A stretch of 33,682 bases of DNA from a virus. Made by a program: the position numbers and the translations under genes. The stretch lies in UHGV virus genome UHGV-0018978. One strand, given 5' to 3'. Under the pieces are notes generated by a model. That model saw only the letters and a list, made by a program, of their open reading frames with translations, searched no databases and was not told where the DNA came from. This document shows, one piece after another, positions 1 through 33,682 of this stretch; the first letter of the stretch is position 1, and every line of letters starts with the position of its first letter.

Positions 1-675
1 CCTGAATAGCTTAGTGTTTAGTCGCTTTTTTGCGCGCTTATTCAGGAACCTGATGTAGCGATACTGATTAAATTTGTGTACCACGGCCCGCTCCTTATTA
101 GCCCGCAAATACACGCCTCGTTGCCCTCCACGCTTAATCGCGTTCATCGTTATCTCGTGATACCACTCACCATCCAGCTCGTAGAACGTGCTTTCATGGC
201 TGCCAATAAAATCAAAATTCGACGCCTGATATACCACACCAGCGCGTCCGCAGCGTTCGTCGGCAAAAGACTGAACCCACTCCACTGACGGATACAGTAG
301 TCTGATGGTTTTTAGCGCGTAGCTGATGGCCCGTGATTCAGAGTTGCGGGGCATGTCGTCGTGTAGCCACATGCGGTTCAGTTCCATATAGCCCCGGTTA
401 TCCGTTTCAAGCACGACCCGACGCCCTGAGTTGGGGTTAAGGGCATATCCCCACTGAAGAACGCCAACCAGATCACGTCCGCTGAATACGCCCAGATGCA
501 GGTAGGAGTTATTCACAAAACGGCGGGAATAGTGTTTTGTCTGAATGATTGTGCGGGCCAGCCAGCAGGATATGGTTTCAACGCGCAGTTCCCTTGAACC
601 ATAGCCGACAATACGGCCTTCATACTCAATAACGCAGGGTTTTGTCAGAATGCGTGATTTCTTCTCTTTTCCCAC
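1..675 (-). CDS. mom: DNA modification protein Mom, C-terminus truncated by the window start; start codon uncertain (probably non-AUG, e.g. GTG at 673-675)
   Basis: Open minus-strand frame from about 675 to position 1 with no stop, beginning inside the 3' end of com as in Mu. No in-frame ATG; a GTG with GGAG 7 nt upstream is the best start candidate. Identity rests on position and overlap with com. Confidence 0.6.
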
Positions 676-811
676 AATACAACTCCGTGGGATGCTCCTG
701 GGCACTCGATATGACAATGTAACGTTTACAGCGAGGGCACTTAATTTCTATATGCTTAAAACCTCCTTTAAACAGTAATTTATTGCAGTTTTTACAGCGA
801 ACAGAGTCCAT
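626..811 (-). CDS. com: Com, zinc-finger translational activator of mom
   Basis: Translation [33 protein letters not shown]...[16 protein letters not shown] has the Cys4 pattern and closely matches my recollection of Mu Com. ATG at 811 has a GGGGG Shine-Dalgarno upstream; the listed 81-aa ORF from 871 is probably an N-terminal over-extension. Confidence 0.8.
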
Positions 812-935
812 GTTTCCCCCTGTGTTATAACCAGATATGACCGCCCGGAGGGCTGGGGGATATTTAATCATAATTGATGCAAACCGACGATCGATATAAT
901 GATATCGATCGTCATAAACTATACAAAATGATTGC
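812..935 (-). promoter_or_regulatory. com-mom regulatory region (candidate Pmom) containing a 28-bp palindrome with two GATC sites at 886-913
   Basis: Intergenic gap between the chaperone stop (936) and com start. Sequence gACGATCGATAT-AATG-ATATCGATCGTc has 12-bp arms, each with a GATC (889-892 and 907-910). In Mu the mom promoter is controlled through clustered Dam sites. Confidence 0.5.
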
Positions 936-1505
936 TTAATCGCCTGATGTGAACGCTCTTACCTCGTCCAGGGTGGACAGCAGGGAAAGCTGCGCTTTCA
1001 TCTCTCGCTGGCGCTGATAAATTTCATCATTGCGATCAGCCTGCGCCTGAACCATTGCCGTAAGTAGTTCATCCAGTTGTTGCATTGACAACTTTACCTG
1101 CTGATTTTCCGCATCACTCCATACCATGGTTTTCGGTGCCGTGACTGATTTTGCTGACATCACCATCGGGTAAAGACGGGCCATCGAATCCGGTCCCCCG
1201 TTCCAGCTATGACCGTTCCATTCGAACGTGAACGGCTGCGCCTCCTGTTCTGTACGCCATTCTTCTATTTCCTGACGTTTGGCTGCTTTTACGGCCTCCA
1301 GCAGTTCTGGTGTCACGACGAACGGGGTAATCTCACCCCATCTCCCGCTTTGCAGTTCCTGCCAGACTCGCTGCCCTGTCTCTGCTGTATCAGTGGCAGT
1401 TGCCGTATACGGAACAGGGGCATCCATGCCATCAAACAACACCTCGCAGTCAATCGCGCCATTCTCAAGATAACGCGCATTTTCAATTCGTTTTATCTGC
1501 ATCAT
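936..1505 (-). CDS. Tail fibre assembly/chaperone protein of the second fibre module
   Basis: 189-aa ORF immediately downstream of the large fibre gene, 4-bp gap. Assignment is by position and size; the sequence is not a typical Tfa/U-type chaperone. Confidence 0.5.
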   Translation of the reverse strand: MMQIKRIENARYLENGAIDCEVLFDGMDAPVPYTATATDTAETGQRVWQELQSGRWGEITPFVVTPELLEAVKAAKRQEIEEWRTEQEAQPFTFEWNGHSWNGGPDSMARLYPMVMSAKSVTAPKTMVWSDAENQQVKLSMQQLDELLTAMVQAQADRNDEIYQRQREMKAQLSLLSTLDEVRAFTSGD

Positions 1506-1509
1506 CTAC

Positions 1510-2949
1510 CTACATAATACGGACAAACAGACCTGTTATCGAAGTACCTGCACTCACTTTAGTTGTGGGTTCCCCTGACAGTGCCACAAACGTCCCTGCC
1601 ATTGGATACGCCGAAGGCGGTGCAATTACAATCTGCGGAGTTGAGGTGCTCAGGCCATTATGGCTGTACGGCGCTGTAACAGAAATGGCAGCAAGTCTGG
1701 AGCCTGACACACCGCTTCCCCTGAAAATTCTTCCGTCTTCATCCATGTCATTTATGCAGTATGCGGCAAACACGACCCCGCCAATTCCTGGATAACCGTA
1801 ATTATTGGCTCTTCCGGCGATGGAACGTAGCGTATCCGCAATCCCTGTTTCACCCAGCTTCAACCTTTCCCAGCCAGTCAGATAACCATTACCTGTTGTC
1901 CAGTAACGGTTGTAATAAATATCGCCATTAATACCGTAGAAAATAATGACCTTTGCTGTATATCGCGGTTCCGGTGGATTATTGCGTACCTCAACCCAGC
2001 GGATGCTGACCACCCCGTTAAACAACACACCTCCGGATATGATTTTACTGCCACCATCAACAAAATATTCACCCGGCGTCGCATTCCTTGCCCAGGACAG
2101 AAAATCATCCTCTGTGTTAAAACGGATACGCTCTGCGGGCAAAAAAATATGCCCAAAACCAAATGCGCCAGGTGTCGCCAGACAGCCTTCAGTCCGGTCA
2201 CGAATGTCGCTCTGTGGCGTCATCGTGGCTGCGCTTTTCAGTCCAAGATTATCACGGGATTCCTGCTGAGCCTCTTCACCTTCATCAGCCAGCTCTGACA
2301 GGCGATTCGCCGTTTTCAGTGTCGCAGATAACGCGGTGTCAATATCCTCCCTGACATGCTCTGCATCAGATGCAGCCTGTTTAGCAGCTTCAGCGTCCTT
2401 TTTTACCTCCTCGGCGGCATTCTCAACCTGTGAGACCAGATTTTCGGCCTGTTGTTTACCCTCCGCAACCGCGTCGGCGTTCTGCTGAACACCTTCCGCC
2501 AGTTTTTTTACCTCTTCTTTTGCCCGGGCGGCAGCGTCTGCATGTTGCCCTGCCTGCTGCTCGCTTTCTGCTGCGGCTTCCGCGCTCTGCTGCGCCTGCT
2601 GTGCCAGTTCCTCGTATTTCTTCAGGGATTCCGGGCGCAGGTCAATATCGGTTGCGCCCAGAAAATCATTCAGCGAACCATCCGCTGAATCTTCATAAAC
2701 GCGGATGACACCGATTTCTGAAAGGCGCTGTACACTCTGCGTCAGGCGAACGCTGTACACGCCCGGCAGAACGGGGAAGTTATATTCCCCATTCTGTGTG
2801 GTGACGTGACTGAAAACACCTTTCAGAATCCCTGCACGGTTGTGCAGGGAGGTCAGTGTAATGGTTGCGCCGCCCAGCGGTTCTCCCGTGGGCGTTTTAA
2901 TCACACCTTTAAGCTGCGGCATCGGGACGCTCCGGCCAGTTGATGGCAT
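1510..2949 (-). CDS. Tail fibre protein (second fibre) with a central Ala/Glu/Gln-rich coiled-coil region
   Basis: 479-aa ORF. N-terminal beta-rich segment, then a long A/E/Q/K-rich segment (roughly DNA 2262-2622), then a Gly/Tyr/Asn-rich C-terminal domain. This architecture is typical of phage side tail fibres. Confidence 0.7.
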   Translation of the reverse strand: MPSTGRSVPMPQLKGVIKTPTGEPLGGATITLTSLHNRAGILKGVFSHVTTQNGEYNFPVLPGVYSVRLTQSVQRLSEIGVIRVYEDSADGSLNDFLGATDIDLRPESLKKYEELAQQAQQSAEAAAESEQQAGQHADAAARAKEEVKKLAEGVQQNADAVAEGKQQAENLVSQVENAAEEVKKDAEAAKQAASDAEHVREDIDTALSATLKTANRLSELADEGEEAQQESRDNLGLKSAATMTPQSDIRDRTEGCLATPGAFGFGHIFLPAERIRFNTEDDFLSWARNATPGEYFVDGGSKIISGGVLFNGVVSIRWVEVRNNPPEPRYTAKVIIFYGINGDIYYNRYWTTGNGYLTGWERLKLGETGIADTLRSIAGRANNYGYPGIGGVVFAAYCINDMDEDGRIFRGSGVSGSRLAAISVTAPYSHNGLSTSTPQIVIAPPSAYPMAGTFVALSGEPTTKVSAGTSITGLFVRIM

Positions 2950-3475
2950 TAAAGGAGGCTTCGTCAGTAACGGTGCTTAAATCCAGCGCCTTCACCGCTT
3001 TGATATATTCCATCCACTGCGTAAGACGGACTTTGTCATCGTCGCTGATGGTGCCCAGCTCCAGCTCGGTTTTCCAGTCGGAAGTGATTTCCTTTGCTTC
3101 ATTCAGCAAGCGCTGACGTTGCTTTTCTGCCAGTTTCGAATAATCAACAGGAACTGGCAGTACTTCGCCATCCCGGTAATACCAGCTGGCTTCGATGCCA
3201 AAACCCTCCGGCAGCTCGTCCACTTCCACAATAGTGAAGCCAGCCGGATAAAGACGGGACACGTCTTCCGCCATCGAATAAATCACGCCGGTTTCCGGGT
3301 GAATACACAATTTGTATTTCTTCGTGAATTTATCCAGTGATTCATAAAAATCCTGTCCGTCTTCACTGCGGAAATACTGAATGTTTTCACCATAAGGCAT
3401 CTCTTCCGGGTAATAACGCGTGACGTTTCTGAGTTCCATTATTTTCTCCTTAATTAGCCGGATACCGTTCGCCAT
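2909..3475 (-). CDS. Tail fibre assembly protein, Mu U / lambda Tfa-like
   Basis: 188-aa ORF directly after the first fibre gene. Assignment is by position, size and a resemblance to Tfa/U chaperones judged from memory, not from an alignment. Confidence 0.75.
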   Translation of the reverse strand: MANGIRLIKEKIMELRNVTRYYPEEMPYGENIQYFRSEDGQDFYESLDKFTKKYKLCIHPETGVIYSMAEDVSRLYPAGFTIVEVDELPEGFGIEASWYYRDGEVLPVPVDYSKLAEKQRQRLLNEAKEITSDWKTELELGTISDDDKVRLTQWMEYIKAVKALDLSTVTDEASFNAINWPERPDAAA

Positions 3476-4263
3476 CCGCCATTGATATAAATCTGGGTTT
3501 GTTTGTAATACACGCCGCCGATGTTATCCGCAGAACTTCTGCCAGTATCCTGAACGTTAATACCTGACAAAATACACCCTGAAGGCGCGCGGAATACCCA
3601 GGAAATTTCGTTACCACCGGGATTGTGAAACACTTCTCTGGTGTATCTGAAATCACGTACTGCACCAGAATCGGTGCTGCTGATGGTGATATCTCTGGTG
3701 CCATCAAACAGCACATTGTTAATCCTGCGGGCCGTCTGAAGCCGGGTTGCCGTTCCGGCATTGCCGCTGATATTGCTGATGGTGATATCCGAAGACAAAG
3801 CCATACCGTTGACCCTGCGGGTATTCGGTACAGCACTATTGGCTTTATTTACCGTGTCACGTAATGAAAGTGCATCGATAATTTCACTGGCTGTGTTTTT
3901 CCCGAGAATACCGCGCACAAACGCACTGAGCGGCGTTAATGCCATTGTGTCTTCGCCCGTAAAATACGGGAATGTATTATTCTGACCGGTTAATCCGGCA
4001 ATAGCTCCGGCTGAACCACTGTTCGTAATAAACAGTTTTTTCAGCGCTGTCATAATCTGGTCGGTTGTGTTTTTATCCGGTTTGATATTTGCCTGCCGGA
4101 GAATTTCCAGCAGTTCAGACTGAATAATATTAAACCAGTCCGGCCCCGGATACGTGGGCGGAATACCGTTCCCGCCTTCGGTGAAATAAAGCGTCGCCAT
4201 GCTTGATACCGCCGCGACAGGTGGCATCACCGGCACACCCGTCGGGTTATCCACATAAAACAT
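3454..4263 (-). CDS. Tail fibre protein, Mu S-like but short (269 aa)
   Basis: Sits immediately after the gp48-like gene and before the U-like chaperone, the position of S in Mu. N-terminus MFYVDNPTGVPVMPPVAA is of the fibre N-terminal type. Confidence 0.7.
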   Translation of the reverse strand: MFYVDNPTGVPVMPPVAAVSSMATLYFTEGGNGIPPTYPGPDWFNIIQSELLEILRQANIKPDKNTTDQIMTALKKLFITNSGSAGAIAGLTGQNNTFPYFTGEDTMALTPLSAFVRGILGKNTASEIIDALSLRDTVNKANSAVPNTRRVNGMALSSDITISNISGNAGTATRLQTARRINNVLFDGTRDITISSTDSGAVRDFRYTREVFHNPGGNEISWVFRAPSGCILSGINVQDTGRSSADNIGGVYYKQTQIYINGGWRTVSG

Positions 4264-4266: not shown

Positions 4267-4851
4267 TTATTCTCCGGTGTAATAATATTCATATTCCGTA
4301 CCCGCCAGCCGGTAATGCTTCAGCAGGCATTCCAGCTCTCGGGTCCGTTCGCTGATTAATGGCGTCATAACGTCATCAATACAGGTAAACCGCCCGGCAT
4401 CGTTGTCCGGGACTTCCACTTTCAGCAGCCAGCGATACCGTGCCGGATGCAGCGGGTACATGCAGTCACGCAGGCAGTGGTGCGGCAGAACGGCCGTCAC
4501 CTTAATGGTGAAGCCCAGCGCCGCCGCTGCGGCTTCAATCTGCCAGGTTGCCAGCCCGCCTTTGCGGCGGTATTTCTCCACCACGGCCCGGAGGCGGGCT
4601 TCCGTTGTGGTGGCGGCAATTCCGCATTCCGGCAGCGCCAGATATTGCTCCCACTCCGGCAGCAGCTGGAGCGTGGTTTCCGGTCGCATCTCCACATGCA
4701 GGCGCGAGGCGTCGTATTCAACGCGGGTTAAACGCTCTGCAAGCGCCCTTAAAAAACGGTTTAAATCTGCATCGTTATCACGCGGCCATGCCTTACCCCG
4801 TGGCATGATTTGTTGCAGTGCGGTCAGCCATTCCGTCACGCTGTGAGCCAT
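4267..4851 (-). CDS. Tail/baseplate protein, Mu gp48-like
   Basis: 194-aa ORF between the J-like baseplate gene and the fibre gene, matching Mu synteny. Confidence 0.6.
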   Translation of the reverse strand: MAHSVTEWLTALQQIMPRGKAWPRDNDADLNRFLRALAERLTRVEYDASRLHVEMRPETTLQLLPEWEQYLALPECGIAATTTEARLRAVVEKYRRKGGLATWQIEAAAAALGFTIKVTAVLPHHCLRDCMYPLHPARYRWLLKVEVPDNDAGRFTCIDDVMTPLISERTRELECLLKHYRLAGTEYEYYYTGE

Positions 4852-5912
4852 GTCACCTCCCCGATGGTGATAAGCTCATCCATATCACTTGTGGTGTCTT
4901 CCCCGATGTTGAGGAAGTAATCCGTGATACCGGACGTCATACCGATGGCCGTGCGCAGCGAGGACACCGGCAGCATCTGACCGGGGGCCAGCGTTTTCTG
5001 TAATGCGGTCAGGTTTGCCCGGACGGCGTTCCTGTTCGCCTGGCTGTCTGGTGTCAGACGGATGGACAGGTCGATTTTCTTCAGTCTGACCTGTACCGGC
5101 CAGACCTCAATGCCGCCCGGTTTGCCCACCATAACGCCCGTGGCAGGGTGTTTGTGACAGAACAGATACTGCTCCATTGTCTTCAGGTCGTCCCGTGTGG
5201 GGATAATGTCTTCACGGTCATCATAAAGCCATGCCAGCCCGACTGTGCCGGGGCCGTGCCACGCATCCCATGCCCACGCGCGGCTGACGCCCGGTACTTC
5301 ACGCGCCCAGATGACGTAATCATGCAGTGCACCGCCCACCGGGGGATTGCGGCGCACATACAGCAGACGGTCCAGCAGCTCTGCGATGGATTCAATATCT
5401 GCGCCGCCGGTGATGCCACTTTCAGTCACCGCGCCTGTGCTGCCCGTTCCGGGCAACGGGGACAGCAGGGTCAGAACCGAACCGGCAGCAAGATTGCCCG
5501 CCACACCGGCTTCTTCAGCCTGCACGATGACAGTGACCTCGCCGTCCTGTACCTCGCCGGATGTGAGTACCTGATACACCTGATTCGTGTCGGACTGCAT
5601 CCGGGTTTCTGCCGGAATGGGGGACTGACTGGTGAAGGTCACCGGTCCGCTGGCAAAGGTGGCCTGCTTGCGGATAACCCCTTCATACGTTGCCGTTTTG
5701 ATAATGGTTTCATCATCAGACGCGGTGGACGGAATTATCTGGTCCTTAATCCAGCTCTGATGGTCGTATAAATCCCGAACCTGACTGCTGAATGACACGT
5801 TCAGCGCCTGCTCAACACTGACAGGCGGCAGCTTTTGCAGGCCGAGTTCATACGCAATATCTTTTTCGCCGTCGGCAATCAGTTTGCCCAGCGTGGGGAT
5901 TTCATACGGCAT
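4836..5912 (-). CDS. Baseplate J-like protein (Mu gp47-like)
   Basis: 358-aa ORF in the baseplate cluster; size and position match baseplate J family. Confidence 0.65.
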   Translation of the reverse strand: MPYEIPTLGKLIADGEKDIAYELGLQKLPPVSVEQALNVSFSSQVRDLYDHQSWIKDQIIPSTASDDETIIKTATYEGVIRKQATFASGPVTFTSQSPIPAETRMQSDTNQVYQVLTSGEVQDGEVTVIVQAEEAGVAGNLAAGSVLTLLSPLPGTGSTGAVTESGITGGADIESIAELLDRLLYVRRNPPVGGALHDYVIWAREVPGVSRAWAWDAWHGPGTVGLAWLYDDREDIIPTRDDLKTMEQYLFCHKHPATGVMVGKPGGIEVWPVQVRLKKIDLSIRLTPDSQANRNAVRANLTALQKTLAPGQMLPVSSLRTAIGMTSGITDYFLNIGEDTTSDMDELITIGEVTWLTA

Positions 5913-6354
5913 TAATGGTGGCCTCCCATCGGCGGGTGATTTCGATTGTGAGCGTGGTTTTGTCCGGGCGGGTTAACACCACCTGAAAGGCAATACAGTC
6001 AGGGATGATGATGCTGGCCGTGACGGTGGCGTTACGGGCGTAACCGGCCCGCAGCAGCGGTTGCATGGACAGCCTCGCGTAATCCTCCACACGCAGGCGG
6101 ACGTCTTCCGTCAGCTTTTCGCGCTCAAGCAGCCACAGGCGGGAACCCCACGAAAAATCGCTGTACGTGTCGCCCGGCCAGCCGCGCGGGTCGCCGGAGC
6201 TGTCAGGAATGACGTCATCGTCATCAGCACGGGCATCGGTGAAAAGGCAGATAAGAACCTGAGTGACCAGCCCCTCATCCAGTGAGAGGCCGTTATGGGT
6301 GACGGTGATGTCACCCCGTGAGAGCATGTTATTCCAGCGGATTCCTGTCGTCAT
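5902..6354 (-). CDS. Baseplate protein, Mu gp46-like
   Basis: 150-aa ORF in the conserved position between the V-like and J-like genes. Confidence 0.6.
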   Translation of the reverse strand: MTTGIRWNNMLSRGDITVTHNGLSLDEGLVTQVLICLFTDARADDDDVIPDSSGDPRGWPGDTYSDFSWGSRLWLLEREKLTEDVRLRVEDYARLSMQPLLRAGYARNATVTASIIIPDCIAFQVVLTRPDKTTLTIEITRRWEATINAV

Positions 6355-6887
6355 ACGGGCGGTGATGTATTCTCATTGTCGCCGTCCTTATGAATGTGTT
6401 CGATGAATGATTTACCGTTGATTCTGACATCTTCAGTAAATTCACAGGGACCGACGAATTTCATTTGTTTACCGATAATATTCAGCAATTCGTCGGCGGT
6501 GAGATTTACCGTTTTCCCTGAAACGTTTAATTGTTCTCCTGTGATTTCAATAATTCCGCCTTTCCTTAACGTGATATGTGATTTGCCGTCCTGGTGATAC
6601 AGCCGGACGTCGCCGGTGGACAAGCCTTTAGGGCGACATCGCTTATCCTCCACCGCGATGGCAACCAGCCCGTCACGCCGTCCGCCAACGGCCAGCACAA
6701 TGGCTTCAGAACCTTCCGGCGGAACGGAAGTAAACCCGTAGTTCTGGAAGCGTTCCACGTCGTCGTCAGTGGCATCTGCCAGCGTCTGGATTTGCAGGTT
6801 CTGCCGCTCCAGACTGTCAGACACCATGCGGACAACGGCACGATCAACCAGCAGCCGCAGACGGCGGGCAATGGCGTTTAATCCCAT
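6351..6887 (-). CDS. Baseplate assembly/spike protein V-like (Mu gp45-like)
   Basis: 178-aa ORF in the synteny position of the Mu baseplate spike. Confidence 0.6.
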   Translation of the reverse strand: MGLNAIARRLRLLVDRAVVRMVSDSLERQNLQIQTLADATDDDVERFQNYGFTSVPPEGSEAIVLAVGGRRDGLVAIAVEDKRCRPKGLSTGDVRLYHQDGKSHITLRKGGIIEITGEQLNVSGKTVNLTADELLNIIGKQMKFVGPCEFTEDVRINGKSFIEHIHKDGDNENTSPPV

Positions 6888-7948
6888 GTGGCCACCGCCT
6901 TTGTTTTCTTCGTCTTCGCTTTCATTTCCGGCATATCCAGTGATTCAGGCGGAACCAGCGCCAGAACCGTCATCCGCCCCTGTGCGCCATCCGTCCAGGT
7001 CACCCCGGATATCAGCCAGGTGGTTTTCAGGTTCTGAATGCTGTCGTCGATATCGACAAGGCGGTTGGTCTGCCACAGCGGGCCGCTGTCGCCCTGTTCG
7101 CGCCAGCCTGCCACCGTGATTTCCGTCGTGCGGGATTCCCCCAGCATCCGGGCTTTGTACCATTCCCCACGAATGCTGGCCCCGCCCACGGTCAGGCTGT
7201 CTTCATTGACCAGAATGCGCGGGCGGTAACGGTTAATTTCCGGGTCTTCGGTGATGTACTGGCGACCGCCCACCATCGGGGCAGGCTGGCTGTCCCACAG
7301 TTTGCCACCGGCACTGGTGGTGCCCTTGATGATGTACTGGCTGTTACGCTCCCGCCAGCTGAAGCGCCCACGGGCTGCGAGGATATTTTTCCCCAGCACC
7401 AGTGACACACCCGCGCGAACGGAAGAGGCGCGGGTGATAATCAGGTTACCCGCCCCGTCAGACGTCAGCAGAACGCCGCGCTGTTTTGCCAGCCGGTCGA
7501 GCAGTTCAAAACCCGTTTCACCCTGTTCCAGAACGACGGACGCAAACGCCTCCCCGGTCGGGGTTTCCGTGATGACGGTTATCCCGAACGGGCGGCAGAC
7601 ATCAGCCGCCACCTGTTCAAGCCGCACGCCTTTCCATTTCCCGGACGAATGCACCACAGAGCAGTCAACCAGGTCACCGGTTTTGTCGCGCCCCATGACG
7701 CGAATCTCCACGTTATCTGCGTCATAGCTGGGGATAAAATCATCGATATACCCTGTCAGCACGGTATCCGCACCCAGCCTGACCGTGCAGGGTTGCCCCT
7801 CACGAATCACGCGCGGTGCCGCCGCTGACCAGCGGGTTGTCACACTGAGATCAAACTCACCGGCAATCGCCTTCAGGGAACGGCTGACGGACATTTCCGT
7901 CCAGCCTTCCCACAGTTTGCCGTCAACGGTAAGAATCACGGATTCCAT
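6878..7948 (-). CDS. Tail protein, Mu gpP / P2 gpD (late control D) family
   Basis: 356-aa ORF downstream of the DNA circulation gene; size and position fit Mu gpP. Confidence 0.6.
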   Translation of the reverse strand: MESVILTVDGKLWEGWTEMSVSRSLKAIAGEFDLSVTTRWSAAAPRVIREGQPCTVRLGADTVLTGYIDDFIPSYDADNVEIRVMGRDKTGDLVDCSVVHSSGKWKGVRLEQVAADVCRPFGITVITETPTGEAFASVVLEQGETGFELLDRLAKQRGVLLTSDGAGNLIITRASSVRAGVSLVLGKNILAARGRFSWRERNSQYIIKGTTSAGGKLWDSQPAPMVGGRQYITEDPEINRYRPRILVNEDSLTVGGASIRGEWYKARMLGESRTTEITVAGWREQGDSGPLWQTNRLVDIDDSIQNLKTTWLISGVTWTDGAQGRMTVLALVPPESLDMPEMKAKTKKTKAVATWD

Positions 7949-25227: not shown

Positions 25228-25251
25228 TTCATTGAATATAAGGTTATTGGT

Positions 25252-25749: not shown

Positions 25750-26147
25750 TGTTCGTCCTTAAATAGTTGCATTTGATACTTTCCACGCTCCAGTCGGCGC
25801 ATTCTTTTGATGGCCTGATATACCGTTTTGTATGTCACTTTGTAACGCTGCACCAGCTCCGCTACGTTTTTCCCATCAAAATCACGCCAGATGCGCATGT
25901 CTCTGATAAGATTTTCCAGTATTTTCCCTTTCGGAACATATACCTGAATCCCACCGATATGATTGCAAATCGCCACTACCAGCTCAAGGGAGTGGGCAGG
26001 GTTAACTCCAAGCCTTATCAGCTCTTGTCGCAACAGAGCATTCAGCTCAGCCAGTAAAGATGGAAATCCCGATTTTTCCTGAACATCATCAAAATATTCA
26101 AGGATACTGTCGTCCTGATAATCACCAAATAAATCCTGCTCTTTCAT
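25746..26147 (-). CDS. mor: Mor/C-family transcriptional activator
   Basis: 133 aa with an acidic N-terminus and a C-terminal helix-turn-helix (TYKTVYQAIKRMRRL); sits directly after gemA, as mor does in Mu. Whether it is the Mor or the C orthologue cannot be settled from sequence alone. Confidence 0.7.
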   Translation of the reverse strand: MKEQDLFGDYQDDSILEYFDDVQEKSGFPSLLAELNALLRQELIRLGVNPAHSLELVVAICNHIGGIQVYVPKGKILENLIRDMRIWRDFDGKNVAELVQRYKVTYKTVYQAIKRMRRLERGKYQMQLFKDEQ

Positions 26148-26695
26148 AGAACTATTCTCCCGCTGTTTCTGGCGCGGGCATACGCACTGGTCAGTGCATC
26201 ATATCCGCGCAGTTCCCGCCCGGTTTCGCTCACAGGTAAAGGCACGCCATGTCGGGTAAAGGCTTCCCGAATGCAGCGCATATGCCACTGCTTGAGCGTT
26301 TCGAGCACAACCTGCAACGATTCCCCATGACACCAGGCCAGCGTGGAAACACCCTGACCACCATTACGTCTGGCCGTCAGGCGTGCAACGTATTTGTCCA
26401 GCGCGGCGTCGCTGCCATCAGAGACAAAACCATCAAAGGACATCTGCTGCCAGATTTTATAAATCTTCTCGCGTGGTGTGACATACCCCTTAAAGCGACG
26501 TCGGGGATGTTTTTTCTGCTTCTTAAACCCGCGCTCTTTCATGGCATCGAGCACCTGTTCCAGTTGTGCAACGGACAGCTCGCGGCAACTGGTTTTGCCC
26601 GTGCACTGCACCAGAAAGGCTCGGTAAGTGTCATCGTCGAGGTGCAACTCCCGGCGGGCAACATGAATTAATTTAATCAGGGATGTGCGACTCAT
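26144..26695 (-). CDS. gemA: GemA-like regulatory protein (Mu gp16 family)
   Basis: 183-aa ORF immediately upstream of the Mor-like gene, matching the Mu gemA-mor arrangement. Confidence 0.65.
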   Translation of the reverse strand: MSRTSLIKLIHVARRELHLDDDTYRAFLVQCTGKTSCRELSVAQLEQVLDAMKERGFKKQKKHPRRRFKGYVTPREKIYKIWQQMSFDGFVSDGSDAALDKYVARLTARRNGGQGVSTLAWCHGESLQVVLETLKQWHMRCIREAFTRHGVPLPVSETGRELRGYDALTSAYARARNSGRIVL

Positions 26696-27062
26696 TTTGC
26701 CCCATCTCCTTAATGCAGTGTTTTTCGACCCATGTCACACGAGCAGAATTCAGGTGGCATCTGTCATGTAGGCATTCATCATGGTAGTGCACGTTATCTA
26801 CATTAAATGGCAGGGATTCATCCAGCCCACTCGCGACAAAATCCGCATGTAATTGTTCTAGCGCAGCTTCGCTGTCTGCCCCGATTGATTCAAAATAGTC
26901 ATAAACATTGGCGCATAATCCGACTCCACGAATAAACCCTTCCCCTTCCGTTTCTTGCGCTCCGTTTTTTAACCACTGGTTATAGGCGACATAAAAATCA
27001 TAAAGATGTTTTCTGATGCTGGCGGATGTGGATTTAATTTCATTTTTCTCTGCGTTATTCAT
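26673..27062 (-). CDS. Hypothetical early-region protein
   Basis: 129-aa acidic ORF in the semi-essential early region; no motif recognised. Confidence 0.45.
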   Translation of the reverse strand: MNNAEKNEIKSTSASIRKHLYDFYVAYNQWLKNGAQETEGEGFIRGVGLCANVYDYFESIGADSEAALEQLHADFVASGLDESLPFNVDNVHYHDECLHDRCHLNSARVTWVEKHCIKEMGQNESHIPD

Positions 27063-27237
27063 TTCTTAATACCTCTTCGCAATAAAAGATTTCGCTTGGA
27101 TAACGTTTTTGTATGCGCTCCATCACCTGCATACATGCCTGCTCTGTGGGCCAGATTTTTTCTGTTACCGGAATGGCATCACAGGCATCATTTCCACAGG
27201 TGCCAACCAGCAGGACAAAGCCAATTAACTTAATCAT
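27055..27237 (-). CDS. Small signal-peptide/lipoprotein-like protein
   Basis: Internal start MIKLIGFVLLVGTCGND... gives a 61-aa protein with a hydrophobic leader ending near Cys; ATG at 27237 lies 2 nt after the upstream stop. The listed 92-aa ORF is probably over-extended. Confidence 0.4.
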   Translation of the reverse strand: MIKLIGFVLLVGTCGNDACDAIPVTEKIWPTEQACMQVMERIQKRYPSEIFYCEEVLRNE

Positions 27238-27772
27238 GCTCGCTGATTTCCTGTGTTGCCGCCGGAACCGGTGAATAATCAAGAATGAGATAGCGCAGGA
27301 CGTGGTCGGTGATATTCCAGCCACTGGAGCCACAAATAAAACGACCCAGCCGGATATCGATATAAGCCATCACAAAACGGGGCATTCCCTGTTTGCACAT
27401 CTCGTCATCCACTTCAGCAACGATGTGAACCGACTCGCAAGTCAGTACACCTGTCGCAAATTCTTTTGCCAGTGCCGGAATGGCATTGCCTTCCAGCCAG
27501 GGCAAAGAGCGGCGGAACGCGCACCATTGAGCATCATCAATATCGGGGTGCTCCGTTGTTGCGTTTCGTCTTACTGGCGGCGTTGGACGAGGGCGCTGAA
27601 CGTCATAAAAGCCATTACATTCAGTCAGCAATCCGGCATCAACCGCATCGCGCAGGAAATACACCATTGAGGAAGGTGGCATCTTCATTTTTTCAGCCAG
27701 AACGCCACAAGTCAGACGGCCGTAAGCGCGTAATAATGTACTGACACCGTTCAGAATTTTTGCATCAATCAC
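27230..27772 (-). CDS. Hypothetical early-region protein with a possible N-terminal HTH
   Basis: 180-aa ORF tightly packed with its neighbours. Confidence 0.45.
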   Translation of the reverse strand: MIDAKILNGVSTLLRAYGRLTCGVLAEKMKMPPSSMVYFLRDAVDAGLLTECNGFYDVQRPRPTPPVRRNATTEHPDIDDAQWCAFRRSLPWLEGNAIPALAKEFATGVLTCESVHIVAEVDDEMCKQGMPRFVMAYIDIRLGRFICGSSGWNITDHVLRYLILDYSPVPAATQEISEHD

Positions 27773-27775
27773 CGG

Positions 27776-28381
27776 TTATTCCTCCGTCAGCGCCACAAAT
27801 TCAGAATGTTTAATGCGCTGGCATTCGGCGGGAACCGGTCCCTTAACCTCACCGCCAAGAAGGCGTACTTTAAACAAAATGCCGAATCCATCACGGTCGT
27901 GGTGCATTTCCCACACTGATTTGATGTCAAACAGGTCAACTTCGGCATCTACATTAAGTTCATTACACAGCCAGCCCGGAAAATCCGGGTGTTTTTTGAG
28001 CTGATTTTCACAGTCCCGGATGAGCTTCCCGTACTCACGGCCTGCCGGTATTGTCATATCCGGCATTGCGCCCCATAACTGAATATCACCAATGAAAAGT
28101 GTCTTTGATTTAGCCTCCCATCCTTCCGGTGGTAAACGGTTAAACCAGACACGCGTAACCCTCTCAGACCCTTTGTCACCAGACAAAGACACACCGGTTG
28201 CATTCACTGATTGCTGTAATAACGCAATAACCTCACCACGCTTAACAGAAACGTCTTTCAGCCAGCGAATCGTATAAGCGTTAGCGGCTGTGTCACTCAG
28301 TTTAAAATAAGCACATGCTGTCATTTTCATTCTCTCCGGTTCTGATTCAGGCGCGAGTAGTCCCCTGACGCATCGCGCCAT
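27776..28381 (-). CDS. Hypothetical early-region protein
   Basis: 201-aa ORF (start may be the internal MKMTACAYF) directly downstream of gam. Confidence 0.45.
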   Translation of the reverse strand: MARCVRGLLAPESEPERMKMTACAYFKLSDTAANAYTIRWLKDVSVKRGEVIALLQQSVNATGVSLSGDKGSERVTRVWFNRLPPEGWEAKSKTLFIGDIQLWGAMPDMTIPAGREYGKLIRDCENQLKKHPDFPGWLCNELNVDAEVDLFDIKSVWEMHHDRDGFGILFKVRLLGGEVKGPVPAECQRIKHSEFVALTEE

Positions 28382-28421
28382 AATTAAACGAATGTGAATT
28401 AATTAAATATTAATGGTGGTA

Positions 28422-28946
28422 TTAAATACCGGCTTCCTGTTCAAACGGAATAATGGAAAAATCTTCAATGCCCGATTTAACTGTAATTCCGGCGACACCT
28501 GCGACCGCTTTCGGTTCCAGTAAAATCGCTTCCTTGTTGATTTCCTGTTTCGTGCGAATAAAACGTTGCAGGCCAAGACGCTCCAGCGTTTCCATCACCG
28601 CATCCACACCGCGAATACTTACCGATGGTGGGCGCTGACGCCATGATACATCGCCGGTTACCAGGTTTGCTGTCTTCACCTTGCCGCCGTTCGTCAGTTC
28701 GTCACGGTTCGCTTCACACCATCCCTGAACACCTTTTGAAAGGGTTTCGATACTGGTTTTAAGCGGCGCAATCTGTGAGGCGTATTTCTCCGTAATCTCA
28801 GCAATAGCGTCATTCATTTCTGTTTCAAGTCGTGCCGCTTCGCGTTGCAGGTCCCCAATCCGGCGGATATCACATACCACGGCATCGCGGGATTGCGGAA
28901 CATAAGCCGCTGCGGCGCTCTTGATTCGTTTTGCTGGTTTAGCCAT
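28422..28946 (-). CDS. gam: Host-nuclease inhibitor Gam (binds DNA ends)
   Basis: 174 aa, MAKPAKRIKSAAAAYVPQSRDAV...GIEDFSIIPFEQEAGI; length and sequence agree closely with my recollection of Mu Gam. Confidence 0.85.
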   Translation of the reverse strand: MAKPAKRIKSAAAAYVPQSRDAVVCDIRRIGDLQREAARLETEMNDAIAEITEKYASQIAPLKTSIETLSKGVQGWCEANRDELTNGGKVKTANLVTGDVSWRQRPPSVSIRGVDAVMETLERLGLQRFIRTKQEINKEAILLEPKAVAGVAGITVKSGIEDFSIIPFEQEAGI

Positions 28947-28966
28947 ATAAATAAAGCTCCTGTTAA

Positions 28967-29266
28967 TTAATATTCGCTGTATACAATGCTGGATACAGCA
29001 CGATTGCTTAATTCCATCTTTTGGGCTATCACATGAATAGCCAGCCCTTCTTTATAAAGTTCACGACACAAATATTTGTCGTGCTCACTGACCCGGTATG
29101 CACACAACGATATTCCGTGCCTTCTGGCATGTGCCTGTAGGGCGGTTGGGGCAACGTTCAGTTTTTTCGCCATTTCTTCGACGGTCATTTTCCCGACACT
29201 GGCTTCGATAAATTCCCGGTCTTCGCGTGACCAGCGCTTACGATTACACTTCATGTCAGCCACCAT
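28967..29266 (-). CDS. Small putative DNA-binding protein (HTH)
   Basis: 99 aa with HTH-like segments (TVEEMAKKLNVAPTALQAHARRHGIS). Confidence 0.45.
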   Translation of the reverse strand: MVADMKCNRKRWSREDREFIEASVGKMTVEEMAKKLNVAPTALQAHARRHGISLCAYRVSEHDKYLCRELYKEGLAIHVIAQKMELSNRAVSSIVYSEY

Positions 29267-29686
29267 TCAGTACAGCAGAGGCTCGCGCAGTGATGCCGGA
29301 ATATGCCGCAGCGATAACTGAACCGCTTTCAGGGCAAGGGAAGAATACGTCCCCTGCGTCCAGCCTTTCGCCATTTGCCGGTAATCGCGCCAGATGTTCT
29401 GCCACTGCTCCCGTGCGTCCGGGTCTGACGCGCTGATGTATTCGCGGTCCATGACGTATTCCCATAAATCCACATTGAAGGCGTTGCCAAACGTAATGGC
29501 GCGGAATACCGCCTCTCCGCAATAACGCGCACAAATGCTGTAATGGTCAAATGCAATCAGGTAAGTCTTTTCGCCATACCCCTCAACTTCGCGCGCGCAA
29601 ATAAATTCGCGCAAGTCTCCACCATTGTTATTACGCATTTTAATTCGAATTAATGCCTGGATTTCGTTTCTGATTCTGGCGTTCAT
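29267..29686 (-). CDS. Hypothetical early-region protein
   Basis: 139-aa ORF, contiguous with neighbours. Confidence 0.45.
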   Translation of the reverse strand: MNARIRNEIQALIRIKMRNNNGGDLREFICAREVEGYGEKTYLIAFDHYSICARYCGEAVFRAITFGNAFNVDLWEYVMDREYISASDPDAREQWQNIWRDYRQMAKGWTQGTYSSLALKAVQLSLRHIPASLREPLLY

Positions 29687-29700
29687 TGTCAGCGTTCCTT

Positions 29701-29964
29701 TCAGTGACGTGTTCCTTCAACTGTCGCTTCTGTGACACTGCCACCCGAAATGACGCCATCATTTTTCAGTATTTCAATGGCCTCATGGGCTGACTCGCGA
29801 ACGATATCTCGGCTTTTTTCCAGAACCAGTAACGCTATCGCACCAGCAAGCGTGTATTCATCACCATCCAGTTCTGCACTGTGGTCCACGTTAACATTGG
29901 TGCGTAAATGCTGCCCTTTAACTTCAGATGTCACATTTTTGATTTCGATAATGACTTTTGCCAT
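29701..29964 (-). CDS. Hypothetical early-region protein
   Basis: 87-aa ORF. Confidence 0.4.
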   Translation of the reverse strand: MAKVIIEIKNVTSEVKGQHLRTNVNVDHSAELDGDEYTLAGAIALLVLEKSRDIVRESAHEAIEILKNDGVISGGSVTEATVEGTRH

Positions 29965-29975
29965 TTTGTTTCTCC

Positions 29976-30230
29976 TTATTGATTCTGAATAATTGCGCTG
30001 ACCTTTACCTTCGCGCCTTCTACCTGTTTAAAGAAAACACCACTGCACCACGGACAACATGTGAAGGAGTCCCATACTTCATTTTCGGGGGAACTTTGCG
30101 TCATAAGCTGTTCACCACATCCCGGGCATTTATATGTCGTCAAAGGCACTCCGTGGCGCTGACAATGTTTAACCCACTCAATATATTTTCCAGACCTGAT
30201 ACTCATCGTTATCTCCAGATAATCTGACAA
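29976..30230 (-). CDS. Small zinc-ribbon protein
   Basis: 84 aa with CPGCG...CCPWC, a CxxC...CxxC zinc-ribbon pattern. Confidence 0.5.
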
Positions 30231-30436
30231 CCATTAAGACGGGCCGTCCATACTGAACGGGCAACCCCGGATTTATGCTCCATAATTCTGACCGCGCTTT
30301 TTACCAGTTCCACTGGTGGGTAAGTGATTTCAAGAATCGGACGCGCCACACCGAGATATGATTCATTTACATAACTCCCGCGCGCCTGTAACCAATGCTG
30401 CGCATCTTTTGCCATTTTGATATTACGAGACATCAT
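30209..30436 (-). CDS. kil: Kil-like host cell division inhibitor
   Basis: 75-aa ORF immediately downstream of B, the position and size of Mu kil. Confidence 0.55.
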
Positions 30437-31392
30437 GATTTAGTATCCTCTTTCACACCCAGCAGCATCGAAACATCAACGTCCTGGTCTAACTCTTTGT
30501 AAGCCTCTCGCAGATAATCCTCGTTAACACGTTCGCCTTTACCGAAGGCATTCATAACAGCAAGGCGCAGAGTTTGATTCATAATGCGGAGTGCACCGGG
30601 CGTTTGTGCAATCTGCTGTAATAGTTCCCGTTCATTTTTCCCGGTAATCTGCCAGGCATCCGCAATAGCGTTTACATCGTCTTCTTTGGTTTTATTAATT
30701 GCAGTGCGCTTTGCAATACGGGAAAACAGACGGGCAAACTCAATTGTTCTGTCGCCATTACTGGTCATATTTGAATAAACACGGTGATTCCCCATCAGAA
30801 CAAGACCAATACAGGCTGATTCCTGTAACAGACGGAGTTCTTCCAGCGCCTCGGTGTCGAGGTGATCAGCTTCGTCAACAATGACCAGCCCCTGTGTTCC
30901 CTTTAGGCGACGACGCAGATTGCGGGAAAGCGGCCCTTTGCGACATGGTGCATTATTCATTCCCAATTCTTCGGCAAGTTCGGTCAGACATTCCAGTGTA
31001 CTGGCACGGGATGGCGCAATGGTGATCATCCAGACATTATTATTAGTGCGACAAAATTCACGGGCCGCTTCGCTTTTACCCACGCCAGGATTACCGCAGA
31101 TAACAGCAATAGTTCCGGTCAGATTAGCAAAACGCATACTTGTCCAGATTTGACGGGCTGTTGTAGTTTCCACAAAACGCGGGGGTTCCGGCAGTTCTTC
31201 AGCGCGGTGATAGTTTTCCAGCCAGCGTTGCAGTGTGCTCCCGATTGCTTCCATGTTGCCGTTATATTTATCATTCACAAAACCACTGACTGTGCTCAGG
31301 GCTACACCTGATTCACTGGCGATGCGTGTCAGCGTGGTTTCTCCATTGTCTACAAGCGTGCGCAGTCCTGCGCGAATATCGGAAATATTCAT
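30433..31392 (-). CDS. B: Transposition ATPase / target DNA activator B (MuB)
   Basis: 319 aa, [14 protein letters not shown]... with Walker [11 protein letters not shown] and Walker [11 protein letters not shown]; closely matches my recollection of Mu B. Confidence 0.9.
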
Positions 31393-31430: not shown

Positions 31431-33403
31431 TTAAATGGCTTTTTTGCGTCTTTTCTGTTCCAGAATATCCAGTGACTGATTCAGATATTCATCACGAGAG
31501 GGTTCGTATTTATCATCGGGGGTGCGATATTTAACCTGCACTGTGTTACCTACAGGCCGGAAAATACCAACAACCCTTGATTCTGGTGCTGCTGGTTCGG
31601 CTATCTGCGGCAGTAATTCAGCAACTTCCAGTGCGTCCATTTGTTTCTGTGCCTTAATCGCTGCTTTCGTCGCAGATTTCAGTTGTTTCTGGCGTCGGCG
31701 ATACTCACGACCTGCCGCAGCATCATTAAATGCAACTGGTGCCAGACATTCCGCTTCACAGATAAACCGACCGTCCAGGGTGTAGCAATAAACAGTGCTG
31801 TGTAGCTGCTGCGGATCAAACCTGACCACGACTTTTTTCACTCCGGCATTCATTAATGCCATGTTGTAATAAACGTTTTTCGCGCCTTTAAGAGAGCCGC
31901 CAACTTTAAGCGTAAACTCGCCTTTGCGTGAAACGTTCACCGCCTCAGCAGGCAGTAACAACATCCGTTTTTGTTCTTCGGTTGGCTTACGTACAATCGT
32001 TCTGGCGTATTCACGCTCAAAAACATCATCAAACGAAAGTTTGCCCCCGCACATTTCTGTTTCACGGCCTGTTCTGGCATTGAACATCGCCACACCTTCG
32101 GCAAGTGTTTTCAGAAACAGTTCTGCATCAATAGCCCGGTCGCCATAGTTATCAGGTTTTGCCTGCGGATTTGGCCCCGTATATGCGCCAGCCAGCGCCG
32201 GATGCTTATCAACATATTCCTCAAGTCCCCCTACACCAAAAGCGCGTTCAACTGGTTTTGCCTGCCCCCAGCCCTTACCAGCAACAACACTTGTCCAGTG
32301 CATGGTGGCCCCCATCAGTAAAAACAGTCCCTTTGGATCATCCTCTTTCACTTTAAAGCGGTAGCGATTGGGCGCGCCCCCCGTCAGCCATTTATTCGCT
32401 GCGCCACGGGTGTTATCAATAGTGATATGAAAATCCTCCGGGATGCCGTAGCGTGTCACCACATCCATGAACGAGAGGCGAATTGAATCGATGTTCTCGC
32501 TTACATCGCAACGCCAGCCCAGAATTTTTCGGGTTTTCACATCCTGCCAGAACCATGTTTTCGGGCGGATCACATCACCGTTAAACCAGCGTACAAAGAC
32601 GTTATGGAGATAACCGTCGCCGTTGATCCACTGCATAGCGTCCAGGTGTTCCACAGTTCGCTGCTGTGCCGGTATCAGATGCATCAGTGCATGTTCACCT
32701 TCACGGCAGGCAACAACCATTGCCTCGTCCAGTTGCTGAATCCGGCGAAAGGCCGTGGCACGGGAGGGAATATTCCAGCCATGCTCACGTGCAGCCAGTT
32801 CCAGACGCTCATAACATTTGCGGAAGGCGGGCTTTTCCGGTCGCAGATAATCTGCAATCAGAAACTGCCAGGCATCCTCGTCAAATTCACTTTTGTGAAC
32901 ATTGCGACGAGATGCACCACGTCCATCAACAAGTGCAGCCGCCCAGTCAGGCTTCGCAAACTTCTGTACCGCACAGTGGATGCGCTGACCTGGTAATGCC
33001 CTGCAACGGTCGCAAAAGCCGTTTTTGTTGAAATCCCCTGGTTCAGCATTTCGTCTGCGGCCTGAACTGCAGGCAACCATTTTTCAGCAAGTCTGCGCTG
33101 GGAATCGCTGGCGTTATCCCATTTGCTCCACAGTGCCTCACGATCGTAATCGTGCGCTTCCAGCGTGGGGCGGGCGATTTCAAAATACCCCTGGCTTGTT
33201 TCAATACCTCCTTGTTGCAATAAAATTTCAGCACGTAATGCAACAGGAAATGATTTGATATTGAATTCAAATGATACGCCTTTAGTACCTGTAACTTGCC
33301 TAAACACCCAGCCTTCTCTTTGTGCCTTACGTGTAATGTTAGTTGCTTGCTTTGGCAAACCAGCAAAACCAAGCAATTCTTTCGCTGTATACCACTCTTT
33401 CAT
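31431..33403 (-). pseudogene. A: DDE transposase A (MuA-like, D108-type N-terminus), split by a frameshift near 32968
   Basis: The N-terminal 181-aa ORF (32858-33403) and the 549-aa ORF (31431-33080) are in different frames. Conserved sequence runs ...[11 protein letters not shown] in frame 1, then continues [19 protein letters not shown]... in frame 2, with about 223 nt of overlap. The 549-aa part includes the catalytic core and C-terminus. Confidence 0.7.
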
Positions 33404-33410
33404 AGCGCAC

Positions 33411-33632
33411 CTAGTATCGAGATGGCCAGATATCCTGCGGTGTCATTCCCAATGCATCTGCAATGATTTTTTCCGCTTTCGGGTATCTCTTATCTAAAGC
33501 ATTTTTTAATGTTGAAGACGAAAGATGATTCGATCTTCCCAATTCGGCCAGTGACATATTGCGTTTTCGTAACTCAGCAACGATGTCAGCCCGATGCCAG
33601 TCTTGGCGGTTAGCTCTTTTATTCATATGCAT
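33411..33632 (-). CDS. ner: Ner-like DNA-binding regulator (D108-type)
   Basis: [73 protein letters not shown] belongs to the Ner/Nlp family. Start chosen at 33632 to give 73 aa; the ORF extends to 33656. Confidence 0.8.
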
Positions 33633-33660
33633 TTCATGTAATCCTTTCAGATTCACCCGT

Positions 33661-33682
33661 GAGCTACTCTACAAAGTAGCTC
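33661..33682. promoter_or_regulatory. Candidate operator: inverted repeat GAGCTACT-N6-AGTAGCTC upstream of ner
   Basis: Perfect 8-bp inverted repeat at the window edge, about 30 bp upstream of ner, where the early promoter and operators lie in Mu-type phages. May be cut off by the window end. Confidence 0.4.

Follow-up and report, generated by a model that had tools for sequence, protein, structure and literature searches.

Gene Content and Organization

The window, the whole 33,682-nt stretch of DNA analysed here, carries its genes on a single strand. All 53 chosen ORFs, together covering 97.8% of it, are encoded on the minus strand, and this bears out the inverted orientation proposed in the initial annotation. 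Read from right to left, the genes run from ner to com and mom, the last of which is cut at base 1 (Table 1). A scan of the window against Rfam at gathering thresholds returned no match.

Table 1. Genes and features of the window, in gene order from ner to mom.
Feature	Position	Strand	Remarks
ner	33411..33632	-	D108 type
A, DDE transposase pseudogene	31431..33403	-	split into ORFs 32858-33403 and 31431-33080
B, AAA+ transposition ATPase	30433..31392	-	319 aa
Semi-essential early region	26144..30436	-	kil, gp6, gp7, gp8, gp9, gam, 184/201-aa ORF, gp11, two unnamed ORFs, gemA
mor homologue	25746..26147	-	63% identical to Mu Mor
orf165	25252..25749	-	accessory secreted protein (signal peptide); 40% G+C
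Second Pm-like dyad/terminator copy	25207..25230	-	directly upstream of endolysin gene
Small late genes and lysis region	22193..25150	-	GH108 endolysin, gp18-like, 141-aa ORF, holin-like 207-aa ORF, TraR-type zinc finger, DUF2730, gp26-like
GH108 endolysin	24554-25150	-	Pfam families on relatives
Packaging module	17635..22094	-	gp27-like small terminase, large terminase (gp28-like), portal (gp29-like), short F (gp30-like)
Central non-coding gap	17421..17634	-	contains Pm-like terminator/activator dyad 17472-17495
Head and head-completion genes	13399..17420	-	I, T, 103-aa ORF, gp36-like, G-type morphogenesis, gp37-like, DUF2635
Protease/scaffold I	16458-17420	-	tblastn vs Mu
Major head T	15553-16458	-	tblastn vs Mu
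G-type morphogenesis protein	14191-14736	-	Phage_tail_S
Tail module	4267..13463	-	sheath; tube; gp41/41.5 chaperone pair; tape measure; N; baseplate P, gp45, gp46, gp47, gp48
First tail-fibre cassette	2909..4263	-	S-like fibre 3454-4263 (269 aa); U/U'-like assembly protein 2909-3475
Second tail-fibre cassette	936..2949	-	Stf-like fibre 1510-2949; DUF4376 chaperone-like gene 936-1505; Pfam phage_tail_N, DUF4376
Palindrome GACGATCGATATCATTATATCGATCGTC with two GATC sites	884..914	-	upstream of com; homologous to Dam-site region upstream of Mu com-mom
com, translational activator of mom	626..811	-	62 aa, 71% identical to Mu Com
mom, DNA modification	1..705	-	235 aa, 96% identical to Mu Mom; cut by window edge

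Early Region and Transposase

The regulatory region is of the D108 type, as represented by Ner and the N-terminal (operator/enhancer-binding) domain of the transposase A. Ner is identical to D108 Ner at 72 of 73 positions (99%) and to Mu Ner at 51%. Residues 1-145 of A are 97% identical (140/145) to D108 A versus 70% to Mu A; over residues 152-663 the identity to Mu A is 97%. The D108-like character that had been assigned to ner and to the N-terminus of A therefore stands. A c gene was searched for in the window and not found; in the relative L012, which is 99.7% identical, c shows 89% identity to that of D108.

A MuB-type AAA+ ATPase adjoins A. The initial annotation regarded both B and gam as close matches to Mu. 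B is only 77% identical to its counterpart in Mu, as in D108, and Gam is indeed close at 93%. The semi-essential early genes common to Mu have protein identities of 71-93%, with Kil also at 93%; counterparts of Mu gp12-15 were looked for in the early region and not found. At the DNA level the rest of A, B, the genes from kil to gemA, and mor are similar to Mu, D108 and SfMu (76-87% identity). Beyond mor lies orf165, a gene missing from Mu and from many relatives, whose predicted fold had no match in the PDB.

A MuA-type DDE transposase gene is present and both fragments match A, yet it is frameshifted. Alignments with RM11911, Mu and L012 place a 16-bp deletion at about 32971, in codons about 145-150. 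Because of this frameshift the copy is probably immobile, and it would be a stranded prophage unable to transpose or replicate on its own. The deletion is private to the window copy among the public sequences searched: its junction had no match in exact-match scans of public genome contigs and metagenome contigs, nor did either A fragment in exact-protein look-ups. In 25 of the 26 relatives listed A is called full-length (662, 663 or 695 aa), and the exception, L009, has no called A gene at all.

Such a gap could in principle be an assembly error. A fully functional prophage, with an assembly or sequencing artefact in A, would fit the full-length A called in nearly all listed relatives, the absence of the junction from other public sequences searched, and the intact state of all other genes when compared with L012, L014 and RM11911. 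However, assemblers and base-callers would not typically produce a clean loss of 16 bp next to a substitution where the sequence is non-repetitive. In addition, the remainder of the window is 99.7-100% identical to independent assemblies, which argues for good sequence quality. An artefact is considered unlikely.

Lysis, Head and Tail Genes

In the lysis region the gp26-like and gp18-like proteins are 59% and 71% identical to those of Mu; Mu lys and gp23 were sought there and gave no match. Pfam families for this region were seen on relatives, and the holin assignment of the 207-aa ORF comes from a weak match. The packaging proteins are 31-50% identical to Mu. For example, the large terminase (TerL) is 50% identical to that of Mu and about 70% (68-71%) identical to those of Kp4866-3, MuM16-2 and martha 12B12. 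Head genes show 26-38% identity to Mu by tblastn. The gene for the G-type morphogenesis protein is located after gp36, not after F as in Mu, and ORF 13583-14194 corresponds to phrog_490. Tail genes follow Mu order, from gp48 back to L, with protein identities of 28-47%; their Pfam families were found on the identical genes of contig L014.

The four tail-fibre and chaperone genes are all on one strand, as two pairs in tandem. In the first cassette, the S-like fibre is 33% identical to the N-terminus of Mu S and the assembly protein 29% identical to U', and Caudo_TAP was detected on the identical assembly gene of L014. The second cassette occupies the place taken in Mu by the inverted half of the G segment and gin; neither its fibre nor its chaperone matched Mu. 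The Stf-like fibre likely starts at 2922, and with this start its protein was matched in an exact-protein look-up; two fibre-region ORFs with their longest starts had no match in such look-ups. No invertible G segment with gin and gix was found. Searches of the window for the Gin and S' proteins gave no match, the gix core is absent from it, and even the closest stretch differs from the 26-nt gix at 9-10 positions.

Late Transcription and the com-mom Cassette

The mor homologue is the sole Mor/C-family gene in the window. A Mu C query matches only this gene (32%), with no separate C gene in the window, and the two-step cascade of Mor and then C has no counterpart here. A 24-nt dyad element homologous to the Mu Pm region occurs exactly twice in the window versus zero occurrences expected by chance. 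One copy lies in the central gap, which is located at 50.4-51.1% of the reconstructed element; the Mu gyrase site is 51.3% from the right end. The copy upstream of the endolysin gene is kept in place in RM11911, L025, L027, L031 and L032. The Mor site in Pm has been reported at positions -51 to -36 (PMC4287176, PMC4390567); its location within Mu Pm was worked out here from the published identity of two bases (-57 G, -54 A). No Mor-type dyad was found upstream of com-mom or the tail genes, and a looser search for further dyads gave weak intragenic matches only.

Late expression would depend on one activator instead of the Mor-then-C cascade of Mu, since a Mor orthologue is the sole member of the Mor/C family and a dyad copy stands ahead of the lysis operon as well as the head-tail operon. 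In this arrangement the single Mor orthologue would activate the two operons directly, from Pm-type promoters that may each be embedded in a terminator hairpin.

The com-mom cassette is found at the right end, with DNA identities of 88-89.5% (88% to Mu). The window holds 235 of the 241 Mu mom codons; about 7 codons including the stop are lost past base 1, and in L014, a 100%-identical contig, mom ends 21 nt beyond that base. Zn_ribbon_Com is the Pfam family on the identical com gene of L014. In an alignment with Mu 35601-35790, which is the Dam/OxyR and C-binding part of Pmom, two of the three Mu GATC sites are kept, and the Mu stretch ATTATGCCCCAATAAC that follows them is replaced. The cassette may have retained the Dam-site region of Mu and lost the C-binding site, so that mom might be expressed through read-through or some other factor.

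The combined picture is put forward tentatively and falls somewhat short of probable: a rewired cascade with Mor alone acting at two Pm-type promoters in hairpins, mom transcribed by read-through or another factor without a C site, and an orphan secreted product of orf165 without a fold match in the PDB.

Ends, Insertion Site and Relatives

The c gene and both ends had been placed outside the window, and this agrees with the absence of c and of Mu end sequences from it. The ends, length and insertion site were obtained from near-identical contigs of other samples, because the window lacks the ends, the c gene and host DNA. In L014, whose sequence is 100% identical to window 1-12922, the right end, ...CGTCGCTTCA, lies 136 bp past base 1; in L012, 99.73% identical to 15262-33682, the left end, TGTATTGATTCAC..., lies 989 bp past base 33682. 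The element reconstructed from these contigs is about 34.8 kb long. The extension suggested in the initial annotation was made in this way, and it leads through Mu-type ends into host DNA, not into further phage genes. At the right the host DNA in L014 is adiC, with TTGGT as its first bases. By its identity with this public contig, the window copy probably sits in adiC as well. The earlier description of an almost complete element with both ends missing is correct as to the ends; it overlooked the frameshifting deletion in A.

Forty-five complete E. coli genomes share the architecture of the window with 95-97% identity, and so do many draft genomes, in which it is found at many host sites. The late module, with 95-97% DNA identity, was present in 53 of the 5,426 complete genomes, a share of about 1% for E. 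coli. Relatives adjoin more than 20 different host genes; that of RM11911 is in gspE, bounded by the 5-bp duplication CGGGA. In these relatives the TG...CA ends, the 5-bp duplication and the many insertion sites show that the lineage spreads by Mu-type transposition.

A candidate for the closest named relative was Sp18 of O157 Sakai, for which an invertible host-range region has been reported (PMC2669165). It was set aside on prevalence: the O157 prophage is widespread, and a late module present in only 53 of the 5,426 genomes argues against the two being one lineage.

Mosaic Structure

Only window positions 1-801 and about 26100-33682 resemble Mu, D108 and SfMu in DNA sequence. In blastn comparison with Mu, 8,110 of the 33,682 nt align (24%, about a quarter of the window), and in the late region (802-25250) only 1,143 of 24,449 nt (4.7%). 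The early region is 76-87% identical to Mu DNA. The late 24 kb, with the lysis, head and tail genes, has virtually no DNA similarity to Mu, and its Mu-type module sequence is retained despite protein identities of 25-50%. The shifts in similarity fall near 25-26 kb and 0.8-0.9 kb, and the G+C content is 48% in the early and 57.5% in the late region.

The window, 33.7 kb in length, very probably represents the interior of a mosaic Mu-like transposable E. coli prophage of about 34.8 kb, read from right to left and with A disrupted. On sequence comparison, the element appears as a three-part mosaic, with a left part that is D108-type in ner and the A N-terminus and Mu/D108/SfMu-like from there to mor, a Mu-like com-mom cassette, and 24 kb from another Mu-like myovirus lineage.

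Misassembly, with early genes of a Mu-like element joined to late genes of an unrelated prophage, could also produce sharp changes in Mu similarity and G+C at these two places. Closed E. coli chromosomes contain these junctions too, e.g., that of RM11911 with its bounding 5-bp duplication; contig L012 runs across the one between early and late genes with 99.7% identity; and Mu itself shows such a G+C step (48% versus 55%). All of this leaves misassembly with a negligible probability.

A genuine Mu/D108 prophage of the genus Muvirus, colinear with Mu throughout, is very unlikely too. As such a prophage would have it, the identity to Mu, D108 and SfMu reaches 87-89% in the early region and com-mom, Ner is essentially that of D108, and the late modules are in Mu order. 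However, so little of the late region aligns to Mu, and its proteins are so divergent, that this similarity does not extend to the whole; gin, gix, C, Mu lys and gp23 are missing, and TerL is nearer to those of Vibrio, Shewanella and Klebsiella Mu-like phages than to that of Mu. The usual ICTV genus demarcation is about 70% nucleotide identity over the whole genome, and of the window only 24% aligns to Mu. The mosaic is an ordinary prophage of a known kind, but it is not a true Mu/D108 (Muvirus) genome. The assignment as Mu/D108-type holds for the early genes and com-mom, not for the 24-kb late region. Likewise, colinearity with Mu from ner to mom holds for the order of functional modules; at the gene level there are missing, moved and extra genes. 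Mu gp12-15, gp19, gp20, C, lys, gp23, gp24, S' and gin have no match within the window, and orf165 and the second fibre with its chaperone are extra relative to Mu.

With Mu-like flanks and a non-Mu middle, annotation of this element as Mu/D108 would import wrong gene names and wrong biology, namely G inversion, C-dependent late promoters and Mu lysis genes. Phage records in the searched collection have no DNA match to the late region beyond a 1.5-kb stretch at 72%. With the lineage in about 1% of the complete E. coli genomes, this leaves a small gap in phage records. The element also provides natural comparison material for Mu regulation, with Mor but no C and mom apparently without a C site, and a probable example of a transposable prophage stranded through a small transposase deletion.

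Comparison with Known Phages

Among E. coli prophages, those of RM11911, STEC1575, UMNF18, GCA_037979785.1 (99.73% identical over window 15262-33682) and GCA_012908805.1 have the same overall architecture as the window. The E. coli relatives differ from it in several ways: their A is called full-length, they occupy other host genes, their fibre genes are not the same, their early region is in parts 90-92% identical, and orf165 is present in some and lacking in others.

D108 is similar in Ner, A residues 1-145, early DNA (about 87%) and com-mom DNA (89.5%); gene-by-gene comparison with D108 and SfMu covered ner, A, B and c. It differs in B and throughout the lysis, head and tail genes. Features of D108 that were absent from the window and the identical contig L014 in our comparison are C, gp18-20, Mu-type lys/Rz, gin together with the G segment, and a gene of its own that follows mom.

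The similarity to Mu and SfMu includes A residues 152-663, Gam, Kil, Mom and the sequence of modules. In addition, near-identical relatives have Mu-type ends, and the central non-coding gap lies where Mu has its gyrase site. From Mu the element differs in Ner, the A N-terminus and the late proteins. From both Mu and SfMu it differs in lacking a Mor-to-C cascade and Gin/G inversion, in its short F and relocated G, and in a GH108 endolysin that replaces Mu Lys.

The nearest deposited phages for TerL (68-71% protein identity) are Klebsiella phage Kp4866-3, Shewanella phage vB_SspM_MuM16-2 and Vibrio phage martha 12B12. Kp4866-3 is in addition 72% identical in DNA to window 13654-15125. All three are Mu-like myoviruses of other hosts and are far from identical to the window.

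Gene Content and Departures from Mu Gene Order

All long open reading frames lie on the minus strand, where 53 ORFs account for 97.8% of the 33,682 bases. Read along this strand, the early genes are ner, A (the DDE transposase), B (the transposition ATPase), kil, small early genes, gam, gp11, gemA and mor. These are followed by orf165, an ORF of unknown function, the endolysin, small late genes, the small and large terminase subunits, portal and F. Beyond a 214-bp gap come protease I, the major head gene T, head-completion genes, sheath, tube, chaperone pair, tape measure, N, P, baseplate, two fibre-chaperone pairs, com and mom. The last of these is truncated at base 1, with 235 of 241 Mu codons retained; neither a c gene nor a Mu end sequence occurs within the window. 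Extent and inverted orientation are therefore as the initial annotation described them.

Its claim of colinearity with Mu is correct only in part. The window lacks counterparts of Mu gp12-15, gp19, gp20, C, lys, gp23, gp24, S' and gin, and the G-type morphogenesis gene (Phage_tail_S), which follows F in Mu, is placed after gp36. F is short (254-273 aa versus 439 in Mu), and the endolysin is a GH108 protein with a PG_binding_3 domain. Two tandem fibre-chaperone cassettes occupy the place of the invertible G segment of Mu. The first consists of an S-like fibre and a Caudo_TAP chaperone, the second of a DUF4376 protein and a fibre whose N-terminus is of the lambdoid Stf type (phage_tail_N). This second fibre (470 aa from a start at 2922) is recorded in only four blocks of the assembly collection, and the related prophage of E. 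coli RM11911 has pseudogenes at the cassette position. The gix core is absent from the window, the best match to the 26-nt gix of Mu having 9-10 mismatches. We infer that inversion-based switching is replaced here either by constitutive carriage of both fibres or by the use of one.

The tape measure gene is preceded by two overlapping ORFs (131 and 69 aa) that resemble gp41/41.5 of D108 and suggest a frameshift-expressed tail chaperone pair; the overlap contains no canonical XXXYYYZ slippery heptamer. A hairpin-rich spacer follows directly on the major head gene, at the position of a terminator annotated after T in D108; it has no Rfam match and differs from the related contig L012 by a 7-bp indel.

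Coordinates of features in the window
Feature	Position	Strand	Remarks
Region upstream of com	811-935	-	palindrome and complementarity at the ribosome-binding site
Tandem fibre-chaperone cassettes	936-4263	-	both in the same orientation
Overlapping 131- and 69-aa ORFs	11056-11551	-
Hairpin-rich spacer	15482-15552	-
Central gap	17421-17634		214 bp, non-coding
GAAGCCGGTAAATCCGGCTTTTTT, first copy	17472-17495	-	just upstream of protease/head genes
GAAGCCGGTAAATCCGGCTTTTTT, second copy	25207-25230	-	just upstream of endolysin gene (lysis operon)
orf165	25252-25749	-	165 aa, 40% G+C, Sec-type signal peptide (MKYLPLILLLTVTTVQA/AD)
A	32858-33403 and 31431-33080	-	split into two ORFs by a 16-bp deletion
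ner	33411-33632	-	complete

Similarity to Mu and D108

In a megablast search of 50,697 phage records, Mu, D108, SfMu and their relatives matched the window in two places only: the com-mom region (1-801) at 89-90% and the early region (about 26100-33682) at about 87%. These matches reach the last base for D108 and SfMu but end at 33223 for Mu. With the more sensitive blastn, 8,110 of the 33,682 nt could be aligned to the full Mu genome; for the late region (802-25250) this was 1,143 of 24,449 nt, at 70-79%. Protein identity to Mu is 97% for A residues 152-663, 96% for Mom, 93% for Gam and Kil, 84-89% for gp9, gp8 and gp11, 80% for GemA, 71% for Com, 70% for A residues 1-146, 63% for Mor and 51% for Ner. 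Late proteins range from 25 to 50% (TerL 50, gp41 47, gp27 47, sheath 42, P 39, T 38, portal 31 and I 26%). The D108 character proposed for ner and the N-terminus of A is confirmed, with 72 of 73 Ner residues and 140 of the first 145 residues of A identical to D108. To say that B matches Mu closely was an overstatement, since it is 77% identical to Mu B and D108 B alike.

Origin and Spread of the Lineage

Apart from one 72% stretch in Klebsiella phage Kp4866-3, the late region has no DNA-level match among those deposited phages. For the large terminase, identity is 68-71% with Kp4866-3, Shewanella phage MuM16-2 and Vibrio martha-type phages, compared with 53% for BcepMu and 50% for Mu. At least 80% of window 1-25000 is present in 45 complete E. 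coli genomes, at 95-96% identity, and the sheath-to-protease segment occurs in 53 of 5,426 genomes (identity up to 97.1%). Hundreds of draft assemblies also carry the lineage according to exact-protein look-ups, and in these it adjoins many different host genes. The RM11911 copy, which is annotated throughout, interrupts gspE, with the 5 bp CGGGA duplicated on either side.

Among relatives (L008-L034), the same late module is accompanied by three alternative left-hand modules: a D108-like one (c 174 aa, ner 73, A 662), a Mu-like one (c 196, ner 75, A 663) and a third (c 195 with HTH_3, ner 78, A 695). Such combinations suggest that the immunity-transposase module is often exchanged. In one relative, L033, gemA is joined to the tail genes by a large internal deletion.

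Element Ends and Insertion Site

Two near-identical contigs serve as proxies for the missing ends, and in neither do phage genes continue past the element. ENA contig L014 matches window 1-12922 at 100% identity and extends 136 bp further to ...TTTTCGTGCGTCGCTTCA, which is homologous to the Mu right end. Beyond it (L014 13059-15514) comes adiC, starting at residue 131, followed by eptA; such an insertion would inactivate the arginine/agmatine antiporter that serves arginine-dependent acid resistance. L012 adds 989 bp after base 33682: first a c gene, with 89% identity to that of D108, and then TGTATTGATTCAC..., a match to the Mu left end. From these two extensions the element is reconstructed as about 34.8 kb.

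The Broken Transposase Gene

Alignment with RM11911, Mu and L012 places the deletion in A at about window 32971 (codons about 145-150), where the intact sequence is GACAAGTATTACCAGG; a T-to-G change adjoins it. The N-terminal fragment runs through 36 out-of-frame codons before it stops. Over window 15262-33682, L012 shows 99.73% identity, its only other indels being the intergenic 7-bp one and an in-frame one of 3 bp. Full-length A was called in 25 of 26 listed relatives, the other (L009) having no A gene called. The junction was found nowhere else in scans of genome and metagenome contigs or in A-fragment protein look-ups. We infer a recent mutation, private to this prophage, that has inactivated A and left the copy stranded; an assembly artefact is less probable. 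The prophage itself has probably been inactivated by this small deletion.

Late Regulation and mom Control

The 24-nt GAAGCCGGTAAATCCGGCTTTTTT, a hairpin with a T-run, occurs exactly twice, with 0 expected by chance. It can be aligned to the Mu region between mor and gp18, GTAAAGCCGGTTAATCCGGCTTTTTTTACG (the Pm/early-terminator region), and is kept in relatives with or without orf165. The Mor dyad of Mu lies at -51 to -36 of Pm and comprises 5-bp inverted repeats with a G/C-rich hexamer between them (PMC4287176, PMC4390567). We placed the site on AGTAA-AGCCGG-TTAAT from the bases published for positions -57 (G) and -54 (A). GAAGCCGGTAAATCCGGCTTTTTT probably serves both as a terminator and as a Mor-binding site. 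The simplest reading would be that Mor directly activates the late operons, because its gene is the single Mor/C-family gene in the window.

Upstream of com, a 28-nt palindrome retains two of the three GATC sites of Mu. The Mu stretch after these sites (ATTATGCCCCAATAAC), which we take to be the C-binding site of Pmom, has been exchanged for unrelated sequence, and CCCCC...GGGGG complementarity surrounds the com ribosome-binding site.

orf165 and the Central Gap

Located between mor and the terminator/promoter element, orf165 has two invariant cysteines. Its homologues form only six clusters (E. coli, Citrobacter) among 5.8 billion proteins, and the assembly collection contains the exact sequence in 357 blocks. 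No Pfam or PHROG family matches it; its AlphaFold model, although confident (pLDDT 84), has no fold match in the PDB.

The 214-bp gap spans the 50.4-51.1% interval of the reconstructed element, at its exact centre, and contains three TTTTGAAG(G) repeats. The strong gyrase site of Mu is likewise central, at 51.3% from the right end; the two have no sequence similarity.

Comparison with Known Elements

An almost complete, inverted Mu/D108-type prophage was thus a partly accurate description, in observation as in interpretation. The element is an ordinary Mu-type transposable prophage of a known kind, belonging to a mosaic E. coli lineage that falls outside Muvirus, and is not Mu itself.
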